Part shown: positions 36,001 to 39,000 of the stretch, piece after piece
Position numbering within the stretch: the stretch's first letter is position 1
How the letters are laid out: each line of letters opens with the position of its first letter
IMG/VR virus record: IMGVR_UViG_2721755725_000010
DNA: 51,823 nt
Reading direction: 5' to 3' (one strand)
Source of the DNA: a virus
Lineage: Duplodnaviria; Heunggongvirae; Uroviricota; Caudoviricetes
Program-made: the position numbers

Positions 36001-39000
36001 AAGAAACTGGTCGAGGATTTCAGGCGCAGACGCCCCTGCACCAATCAGCGCCAGAACGGCAGCCGACAGGCCGTATCTGATTTTTGCGTTCATGGATATT
36101 TATCAGGGTTTATCGATTTCAAATCCCTGGATATATTAAGTCTTCAGGCCAGCGGTGGAGTCTTCAGAGAACCCGTAATTATTCCCGGTAGTTTTCCTCT
36201 GTAGGTTATCAACACATCCTGCGCCTCTAAAATGATGGGCCGCTTTTCCGGCAACGGACCATCCCCTTCACATAACCCGGCAGCAACATCCATGAAAAAC
36301 TGCTTCGCCTGCTTTTTCGCCTCAGCTTCGTAAAACTCCAGCGTGGCACCTTCAGTACGGTCAAGACTAATCGCCACATCTGGCAACAACAGTGACGGAT
36401 ACCCACCAATTTCCAGTGCCACAGTAACAGTAATCTTATCCGGGTAATTATTTATCCCTTTAACAACCAGTTCGTATTTTTTCTTCATCACTTTACTCTC
36501 CCCGCACCGCCTTACGCCGGTCCTCTCTGATTTTGAAATACAGGTTAGTCAGATACGTCAGCAGGCCAAACAGCAGACTCCCCAGTACACCTATTGCCAC
36601 CCACTGGGACGGAGAGACTTTGTCCAGCAGTTGCAGTAACCAGTATCCCGTCCCTACCGCTGACGTGGTGTATGACACACCTGTTGTGATTTTTTCCATC
36701 TGATGTATGTCTCCGTCACCGCCGACAGAAAATGAAAGTAAAGGAAAACAAAAAGCCGCCAGTGTCACCCACTGACGGCCAACTCCGGGAGCCGTGATTA
36801 TGGCATTCAGGCTCTGCTAAAAATGCCAGATAACATTCCGGCCCCCCTGGTTCAGGTTATAAATGACACAATATCTTGACAACATCCGTCACTGTCTGTC
36901 AGAAAATATACCGCCAGGCATAAGTATCATGTGAAATCCAACTATCCTTTTGAGCCAGCACCTCCCCACCGAAAGTCAGTGCTGGCTGTTTTTTTCCTTA
37001 ATAAAGCATCTGTAACTGAAACAATCCGCATATTGATAATATATTGACAGGCATCATTGCTGTCTGTGAAAAATAAGTCTCTACAAACATACAAGGCCTT
37101 TTAGCCAGCGTCTTCTTTCAGGTCAGTCGCTGGCTCTTTTTTTATTATGCTGCCGGTGCATTTATCTCCAGCACCAGACTTTCTATCTCAACGCCATACG
37201 CTGCATTTTTTGTAACATCCGTCAGCGTCAGCGCATTCAGTCCCAGTGTCAGACTGTCTTTTATAACCTGGAATGCCGGGCCAGCCACTCCATTCAGTTT
37301 CGGAGTAACCGTGGCACTGCCGGCGGTGAACACCAGCTCCAGCGTCTGCCAGTCGTTACCGTAATCGCCGAACTCCCCCAGCTTCGTGTTTCCGGCTTTC
37401 CTGTGATGCATCAGATTCACTCTGCCGTCAGTGGTCTGAGTGAAGTACGACATCAGGAACGGATTACCGGTACCCGTCATCGCCACACCATCAGGAACGG
37501 GAGCATCCGTATACAGATAAATCCCCAGCCCGAACTGATTGTTGGTCAGTGCGCCTGACAGGCGGAACTTACAGGTCAGTCTGCCGCCCTGTGTCAGCAG
37601 GGTAATTGCGTCATCCACCGGATGCGTCAGGGACCAGGTTTTATTGCTCTGCTTGGTGATCTTAAATACACCATCTGACAACTGAATTCCGCCATCCTTA
37701 ATGCTCCAGCCCTGCGCAGCAGCCTCTCCGGCTGCCGGCAGCAGGGAGATTGTGCGAACGGACGTATCTGCAGACGGACCCGATGGCGTGTTGCCGCCGG
37801 GCGAGGGTTTGATTTCCGGTGCCTTACCACTGATGAAGGCTGAGGTGCGCCCGGCTGCGTTCAGAATAGCGGTTGCCAGACGATCCGGAATAATGCTCCT
37901 GCGCGCCCATGAACTGAAATGTGTCGGGCGGTTTGATGATACCTGGTTTCCATTCGTTCTCGATGCCGCACCGTAATATCCTGATGCCGGAATATCCGGA
38001 TCTTCTGCCGGCGCGTTAGTGGCGGTATTGACGCCGTTACCGTCTGTCATGAAGGGCACAAAATAAACGCCCTCACTCTCCCTGTTTTTGTACGCCCCGT
38101 AAATGGTGTTGTACTGGGTGCCGTAGGTATTTTTCCAGTAATACGTCGTGTCACCACAAATCCACGGCACATCTGCAGCACTGCCACCATGGCACTGCGC
38201 GTTAAACACGGAGAGGTCAGCACGAAACTGTGTCAGCATGGCTGTAAACAGCGCAGGTTGCTGTGCGTGGGTGGCGGCGCTCATGTCAAACTCTCCCTGC
38301 ATCCAGCAGACGGCCAGCAGAACGTTTTTGGGATTTTTCTGCAATGCCGCTTTTGTGCGGGAAATCAGGTCCTGATATAACGGTTTACCCACACCCCAGC
38401 GTGCCGAATCCTGGCTGGCCCCCGTGTCCGCACTGAATGTCCCCTCCGCGCCCTGGGTGAATGCCGAACCACCACGACAGCATGGTACCAGCAGGATCCC
38501 CGCGTTATTCGGGATATACGGAAGCAGTTTTTTGGCAATATGTAAGCCCTGGCCGACACAGCCGTACTGCCCTTTGCTCAGGTCTGCCTTCGGATGATTC
38601 AGCGTACTCATATCCTGCACATCATGCAGGCAGTGGTCGGCCGGAATAATATCGTTATATCTGCAGGCAGCCCCGCCCGGCGTAACTGTACTGCGGCGCG
38701 CCAGCTGTTTAATGCGCGGATCCGGAGCATCGTATGAATCCGGCAGCGGAAGCCCTTCACCGTAAGCCATGGCATTGGACTGCCCGGCCAGTACGATGAC
38801 GTAGTACCAATCCGGCTCAGTTGCACCACTGACCACCACATCACCTTCTGCTGTAATCGCCTGCATCAGGGTATAAGGGGTTATGGCCACCGGACTACCA
38901 AACGGCTGCCAGCCCTCTTTCAGTTTGTGTGTCAGCTTTTCCGCAAGGTCTGACGGCGACGCCGCCCTGACAACATCATAATGTTTAAATGTCATTATTC

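Follow-up and report, generated by a model that had tools for sequence, protein, structure and literature searches.

Does the spacer between the sialate esterase gene and the holin gene of the Caudoviricetes record IMGVR_UViG_2721755725_000010 (Duplodnaviria; Heunggongvirae; Uroviricota) contain genes of its own, and, if so, what are they? A first-pass annotation of this 51,823-nucleotide (nt) sequence, hereafter the window, had noted in the spacer two tandem paralogous units, each with a promoter-like element and a terminator, and proposed them as candidate small RNAs (sRNAs) antisense to the late operon. Both units are indeed present and the sRNA interpretation is supported, both units matching RNAs that were experimentally recovered on Hfq, and the elements are already catalogued in pathogenic Escherichia coli. 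We hold with good confidence that two tandem paralogous Hfq-binding sRNA genes lie opposite the late operon, unit 1 belonging to the PasA family and unit 2 corresponding to EcOnc52. Anatomy, paralogy and homology come from the present analysis; expression, Hfq binding and dependence, and the partners found by RNA interaction by ligation and sequencing (RIL-seq) are taken from published homologues.

The spacer between the nanS-p-type esterase gene and the holin gene extends over positions 36700-37144 (445 nt), and its plus strand holds the two units, each consisting of a perfect TTGACA box, an A-rich, weak -10 element with TG ahead of it, and a hairpin followed by T7. The pattern TTGACA-N10-CTGTCTGT-NANAAA has exactly two matches in the 51.8-kb window (36876-36905 and 37044-37073), both on the plus strand, and does not occur in any of 100 shuffles; unit 2 has one A fewer than the promoter motif as originally written. 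Over 110 aligned positions, 83 (75%) are identical between the units (z = 14 when compared with shuffles, z = 13 with random segments of the window), and thus the two units are true paralogues. The distance of 60-80 nt to the terminators given in the first-pass annotation holds only if counted from TTGACA (77 and 59 nt).

In unit 1, the -35 box (36876-36881) is followed by a weak extended -10 element, TGtCAGAAAAT (TGTCAGAAAAT, 36897-36907), which can be read either as CAGAAA with an 18-nt spacer and the upstream TG, or as GAAAAT with a 20-nt spacer. By homology to PasA and EcOnc51, the unit 1 RNA would occupy 36911-36995 on the plus strand (about 85 nt), ending in terminator 1 (36953-36995), for which sequence and folding give a stem of 9 base pairs (bp), a 17-nt loop and U7 (arms AGCCAGCAC and GTGCTGGCT at 36953-36961 and 36979-36987, T7 at 36989-36995). 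The layout of unit 2 is equivalent, with a perfect -35 box at 37044-37049 and an extended -10 element, TGtGAAAAAT (TGTGAAAAAT, 37065-37074), that is homologous to the unit 1 promoter and is read as GAAAAA with an 18-nt spacer and TG, or as AAAAAT with a 19-nt spacer. The predicted unit 2 RNA (37078-37143, plus strand, about 65 nt; fold z = -3.3) has some 24 nt of unstructured 5' tail ahead of a PasC-like terminator, and its 5' body includes the sequence CUCUACAAACAUA / CUCUACAAACAUACAAGGCC. Terminator 2 (37103-37143) has an 11-bp stem with one U·U mismatch, an 11-nt loop and U7 (arms AGCCAGCGTCT and AGTCGCTGGCT at 37103-37113 and 37125-37135, T7 at 37137-37143), and directly adjoins the esterase stop codon.

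The identity of unit 1 follows from its location, its homology and seed, and its 3' stem-loop with a U-tract, the likely Hfq site, all of which conform to the PasA family. In the enteropathogenic E. coli (EPEC) strain E2348/69, PasA was detected by Northern blot, showed Hfq-dependent stability and was validated by RIL-seq (Pearl Mizrahi et al. 2021, PMC8550237). Flanked by esterase E2348C_0688 and holin E2348C_0689, it has the opposite orientation (layout '> < >') and extends from 743499 to 743415 in its major, 85-nt form and to 743264 in its minor, 236-nt form (PMC8550237, table S6). The position and orientation of unit 1 (esterase > PasA < holin) agree with that table and, in our alignment, the whole window spacer is collinear with the E2348/69 locus, both units included. 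Unit 1 is identical to PasA at 68 of 74 positions over the 3' 74 nt of the latter (window 36922-36995), the published seed GCCAGCACCU (PMC8550237, fig. S5) is intact at 36954-36963, within the 5' arm of terminator 1, and the 5' end published for PasA corresponds to 36911, 6 nt past CAGAAA. The equivalent of the minor isoform, running from the unit 1 start to terminator 2 (36911-37143, plus strand, about 233 nt), is identical to its E2348/69 counterpart at 215 of 227 positions.

In addition, unit 1 matches, at 75 of 77 positions (window 36939-37015), the EcOnc51 peak of strain Sakai (prophage Sp12), obtained by cross-linking and analysis of cDNA with Hfq (Hfq-CRAC); the PasA authors themselves pointed out 'EcOnc51/EcOnc52' as homologues in enterohaemorrhagic E. 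coli (EHEC) (PMC8550237). An Hfq-dependent transcript of about 85 nt has been shown only for the E2348/69 copy, and Sakai has the Hfq-CRAC peak (PMC8550237; PMC4104026). The window and E2348/69 copies share the locus, the antisense orientation, the seed and the terminator stem with its U-tract, and differ by one position in the promoter (in the -10 region) and one change in the terminator loop, whereas the first 40 nt or so diverge, the unit 1 RNA matching the Sakai Sp12 allele there. Because this pattern fits the description of 'PasA-2', an allele common in sequence type 11 (ST11) whose 3' end is conserved and whose first 40 bp diverge (Zhu, Shabalina & Storz 2026 preprint), unit 1 is probably a PasA-2 allele, a label that we take from the described pattern and not from the PasA-2 sequence.

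Could the region instead be a decayed protein gene, or do the terminators belong to a 23-codon small protein? The first-pass annotation had pointed to a short open reading frame (ORF) in unit 1 and had allowed that the units might be remnants of a degraded gene. The ORF exists (36864-36935, plus strand, MTQYLDNIRHCLSENIPPGISIM) and, with a possible AGG Shine-Dalgarno sequence, is present in most variants. However, the ORF begins ahead of the -35 box, its ATG preceding the mapped 5' end of PasA by 47 nt, and its conserved N-terminal part coincides with the promoter. Of the six codons at which the two major alleles differ, five are changed nonsynonymously, and in some variants the length of the ORF is altered. 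We judge translation of the ORF unlikely and a coding role unsupported, the degraded-gene outcome is not supported, and a protein-coding origin of the region appears extremely improbable.

Unit 2 is almost identical to a second Sakai Hfq peak, EcOnc52 (Sp4, 1181998-1182075, minus strand), with 77 of 78 positions shared over window 37078-37155. The 5' edge of this peak maps to 37078, coinciding with the start predicted from the promoter (about 37079). EcOnc52 was listed among the orphan Hfq-binding sites, with an intrinsic terminator predicted and no Northern test (Tree et al. 2014, PMC4104026, table S2), and its peak is similar in size to that of EcOnc51 (areas under the curve, AUC, of 1.03M and 1.09M, respectively; PMC4104026). 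Both peaks, like the two units, are associated with predicted intrinsic terminators, but they were listed as candidates from different prophages, without Northern tests, and their tandem paralogy was not described there. In EPEC, the region corresponding to unit 2 was reported as the part by which the 236-nt 'minor PasA' isoform is extended at its 3' end, and the RIL-seq feature 'pasA.E2348C_0688.IGR' (743267-743294), which equals the unit 2 3' end with its U-tract, is always the second RNA in chimeras and has five partners, escD among them (PMC8550237). The unit 2 segment homologous to the PasA seed, GCCAGCGUCU, differs from GCCAGCACCU, and hence the targets of unit 2 should differ.

Is unit 2, then, an independent gene? 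It has the appearance of a tandem paralogue separate from unit 1, with a conserved promoter of its own, and we regard its independent transcription from that promoter as probable. Unit 2 occurs without unit 1 in Sakai Sp4, where the end of IS629 lies about 25 nt upstream of the unit 2 -35 box, in locus L203, and on several virulence-type plasmids, where it is accompanied by a stub of the esterase 3' end; in each of the five plasmid matches listed, the query is covered over its unit 2 half only. Promoter variation was assessed in 34 unique tandem spacers collected through the esterase protein and thus independently of the promoter sequence. Among these, 2 of 35 promoter columns vary in unit 1 and 0 of 35 in unit 2, and variation in the two promoters pooled is lower than elsewhere in the spacer (odds ratio 0.2, p = 0.012).

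The plasmid copies were also inspected in their own context. Unit 2, its promoter and the esterase stub occupy positions 5001-5151 of loci L009 (pRM10386-2) and L010 (pCAU16175_2), which are large E. coli plasmids, and lie among insertion sequence (IS) elements. One plasmid copy lies near a gene for a TcdA/TcdB-type toxin, and in the plasmid stem a C is replaced by T, with a G·U pair retained.

Several points weigh against two independent genes. Overall sequence diversity is low, which leaves the conservation statistics weak, and both -10 elements are poor: a generic sigma-70 promoter scanner called neither unit promoter, because the hexamers are weak or need a long spacer (CAGAAA/GAAAAT in unit 1, GAAAAA/AAAAAT in unit 2). 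(A generic terminator scan likewise missed terminator 1, owing to its loop-size rule.) The EPEC authors took the unit 2 signal as a 3'-extended isoform of PasA (PMC8550237), and read-through could be the source of the Hfq and RIL-seq reads at the 3' end of unit 2. Furthermore, the unit 2 copies of Sakai Sp4 and Sp12 are identical, which makes read assignment ambiguous. According to the 2026 preprint, the PasA 5' end is produced by cleavage of a longer transcript, in which case TTGACA may not be a promoter; unlike in that account, both PasA isoforms have the same 5' end and different 3' ends (PMC8550237, table S6), as explained by the tandem terminators. Finally, the expression of the window copies, the firing of the unit 2 promoter and the targets are all inferred.

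In a narrower explanation, unit 1 alone is a gene and unit 2 is a duplication relic with a silent promoter, its hairpin serving as a back-up terminator that halts PasA read-through, seen as the 236-nt minor isoform, before it becomes antisense to the esterase gene. The single PasA start at 743499 with two 3' ends (85 and 236 nt; PMC8550237, table S6) and the weak unit 2 -10 element accord with this, and the 17-nt loop and the stem of only 9 bp make leakage through terminator 1 plausible. Nevertheless, the EcOnc52 peak begins at the predicted unit 2 start and no further upstream, its size is close to that of the EcOnc51 peak, the unit 2 -35 box is perfect and its promoter invariant, and in Sp4, L203 and the plasmids unit 2 is accompanied by its promoter but not by unit 1. 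We therefore consider the single-gene explanation possible but rather unlikely.

How would two such genes work? Under the two-gene reading, both units would be transcribed by sigma-70 polymerase in the lysogen, on the strand opposite to the late operon, and could therefore be made while the late genes are silent. The unit 1 promoter would start an RNA near 36911, most of which would stop at terminator 1 (about 85 nt), with a minority reading through to terminator 2 (about 233 nt). Unit 2, a diverged duplicate with an equivalent promoter, would yield an RNA of about 65 nt (approximately 37078-37143) with a different 5' body. Hfq is expected to bind the U-tails of both RNAs, which would then base-pair in trans with host and virulence mRNAs, PasA pairing through the seed in the 5' arm of its terminator hairpin. 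For PasA, such action in trans is the most likely mode, given RIL-seq data from the literature and the complementarity of a target motif to GCCAGCACCU; for unit 2, the same mechanism may be proposed by homology.

Our own search for pairing was less informative. Near the 3' end of the esterase coding sequence lies a candidate PasA site (CUGGUGCUGGA, 37166-37176, minus strand), the core of which, GGUGCUGG, is complementary to the seed core CCAGCACC, and an equivalent site in both E2348/69 esterase genes is included in the RIL-seq motif table (PMC8550237). The match between PasA and the window site comprises 8 Watson-Crick pairs, an 8-mer that on its own is within chance expectation, and a search for contiguous matches between PasA and the esterase gene gave nothing beyond this. 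Pairing of unit 2 with its RIL-seq partner escD, a further point against the two-gene reading, amounts to 12 nt with five G·U pairs and is unconvincing. RNAduplex, applied to the sRNAs against escD and the esterase 3' end, returned long, unrealistic duplexes that were no better than those of shuffles.

The position of the units inside the late transcription unit raises the question of whether they act there in cis. As the first-pass annotation stated, all flanking genes are on the minus strand: ORFs and the RefSeq annotation of an identical locus place a class II holin gene at 36493-36699 and the SASA-family, nanS-p-type sialate esterase gene (616 amino acids) at 37145-38995, with the endolysin and Rz genes beyond the holin in the same orientation. 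The claim that the hairpins work in one direction was borne out as well. On the minus strand they fold at -21.9 and -15.6 kcal/mol, and their 3' flanks, CAAAAGGA and AAAAGGCC, are A-rich and have no U-runs, so that the hairpins should not stop late transcription.

A main role in cis would consist of interference of the two convergent transcripts, or of their promoters, with late transcription, or of pairing with the late-mRNA spacer, to which the RNAs are perfectly complementary, tuning holin synthesis or lysis timing, possibly across prophages, with the trans targets being secondary. Beyond the location of both units on the opposite strand of the late transcription unit, this is favored by the several near-identical copies in all carrier genomes (median of 4 places) and by RIL-seq chimeras of PasA with the esterase 3' end and with a late-strand fragment opposite the PasA 5' end (PMC8550237). 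Against a cis role, neither RNA overlaps the ribosome-binding site of the holin gene, about 175 nt separate the start of that gene from the unit 1 promoter, PasA has many trans partners in RIL-seq (PMC8550237), and unit 2 is kept on plasmids that have no holin. We consider a predominantly cis function improbable and continue to favor two sRNA genes acting mainly in trans.

The spacer contains two further elements. At 36754-36780, about 55 nt upstream of the holin start, the late (minus) strand has a terminator-like hairpin with a U-run, and in the phage 434 record OL657226 a terminator is annotated at the homologous site, as are both plus-strand unit terminators. Next to the holin start, 22-23 nt on the plus strand (36711-36733) resemble the spacer and -10 region of unit 1 (TCCGTCAC...CAGAAAAT), only marginally above chance (shuffle p of about 0.004) and with no -35 box; this stretch may be a relic of a third, degenerate repeat.

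How typical is the tandem arrangement? Among 75 esterase-anchored loci with both spacer anchors, 54 are tandem, with about 481 nt between the anchors, 12 have a single unit (about 326-336 nt), and 9 have a short, unrelated spacer of about 195 nt with neither unit. A scan of IMG/VR with the promoter pattern yielded 79 tandem pairs, 43 lone copies of unit 1 and 10 lone copies of unit 2. Matches are present in 689 of 5426 complete E. coli genomes, roughly one in eight, with a median of 4 places per genome. Across the variants, the hairpin stems show compensatory changes at position 7 (C-G to T-A, with the T·G intermediate seen), position 8 (A-T to G-C) and position 11 (T-A to C-G). The short spacers of about 195 nt, for example that of L154, carry another hairpin, AAAAAAGCCACCAGT...ACTGATGGCT.

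The single-unit loci bear on the origin of PasC, encoded by prophage PP5 of E2348/69. PasC shares the promoter, the start and the 5' body with unit 1, and the base of its hairpin stem and its 3' flank are of the unit 2 type (AGCCAGCG...CGCTGGCT TTTTTTATTATG), adjoining the esterase stop; it differs from the window in being a single-unit locus, with a spacer of about 326-336 nt compared with about 481 nt for the tandem form. Neither window unit combines a PasA-like 5' body with a AGCCAGCGTCC...GGGCGCTGGCT hairpin abutting the esterase stop. A PasC orthologue was accordingly rejected for both: the window has the tandem form, and the 5' body and loop of unit 2 differ from those of PasC. From the comparison of these sequences, PasC is probably a fusion of the 5' part of unit 1 with a unit 2-type terminator. 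In one locus, a PasC-type hairpin stands behind a unit 2 5' flank, and in another class of single-unit loci a PasA-like hairpin is fused to the flank that follows unit 2. The observed forms are those that unequal recombination between repeated modules would produce.

The 2026 preprint independently derives PasA and PasC from a common ancestor and denies that the PasA copies originated from tandem duplication, a conclusion that follows from not counting unit 2 as a copy. A broader proposal would be that the spacer is a recombining sRNA cassette in which unequal crossing-over between the repeated promoter and terminator modules reassorts 5' bodies with variants of the hairpin or seed, giving rise to PasA, PasA-2, PasC, the GCCAGUAC variant and EcOnc52 as distinct regulators, the array perhaps also acting in cis or between prophages on late mRNA (holin, lysis timing) and unit 2 being transcribed independently and having its own regulon. 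Taken as a whole, we rate this proposal as speculative and unlikely.

The tandem layout has parallels in the core genome. OmrA/OmrB and PrrF1/PrrF2 are pairs of adjacent, same-strand sRNA paralogues, independently promoted and terminated, with conserved and divergent segments. Unlike the units described here, which are prophage-borne and have a second promoter that is putative, these are core-genome genes with known regulators. Such tandem paralogues were cited in the 2026 preprint as a contrast to PasA.

Comparison with known prophage sRNAs, as the first-pass annotation had suggested, identified PasA/EcOnc51 and EcOnc52 and no Rfam family: a search of 36000-38000 against Rfam 15 at E <= 10 gave only chance matches and no Pas family, and the AgvB and AsxR models (RF02702 and RF02703) had no match in this interval even at E <= 10. 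The AgvB/AsxR 'anti-sRNAs' resemble the units in being short, Hfq-bound, prophage-encoded, antisense in the late region and conserved at the 3' but variable at the 5' end. They differ in having no sequence or Rfam-model similarity to the units and in lying upstream of the esterase gene instead of between the esterase and holin genes; sponge activity is not known for PasA or EcOnc52. EvrS/PasD/EcOnc13 was rejected as an identity for either unit, as these, too, map to the upstream side of the esterase gene. Another candidate, HnrS (EcOnc10-12; Poudyal et al. 2026, PMC13502914), is a 66-nt multicopy sRNA that represses hha, belongs to the late region of the same types of prophage and is similar to unit 2 in size. 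This candidate was rejected too, HnrS being a separate gene downstream of Rz with a different sequence, and unit 2 neither has the 66-nt sequence with CCCAAUCAGUACAUU nor lies downstream of Rz.

Several of these other RNAs are nevertheless encoded elsewhere in the window. An HnrS copy containing CCCAATCAGTACATT lies downstream of Rz at 34275-34340 (plus strand), antisense to the lysis genes, and the 365 nt around it are 99.2% identical to Sakai Sp10. AgvB matches at 39147-39208 (plus strand; Rfam gathering level, 96.5 bits), 2 kb from the units, and converges with STnc100 at 39209-39399 (minus strand; 143 bits), just upstream of the esterase gene; the presence of this pair indicates that the prophage carries AgvB rather than stx at the moron site. 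An Rfam match to DicF RNA lies at 47017-47068 (plus strand, 72.5 bits). The ALIL pseudoknot, a frameshift element of IS3-family transposases, matches three times with identical scores (5876-5992 and 40115-40231 on the plus strand, 42950-43066 on the minus strand), indicating three copies of one insertion sequence in the window.

To conclude, the two units are further copies of catalogued RNAs, PasA/EcOnc51 and EcOnc52, and are mostly already known; the additions made here are modest, namely the reading of unit 2 as a tandem paralogue distinct from unit 1, the probable origin of PasC by fusion and the covariation of the stems. Prophage sRNAs of this kind tie phage carriage to virulence regulation in EHEC and EPEC, and type III secretion and bfp genes are among the partners that RIL-seq gives for the Pas RNAs. 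If the two-unit 'PasA locus' and the probable PasC fusion are recognized, copy number and variants would be counted differently, and the 236-nt 'minor PasA' isoform would be accounted for. The two-unit reading also points to EcOnc52 as an uncharacterized regulator in about one-eighth of complete E. coli genomes.

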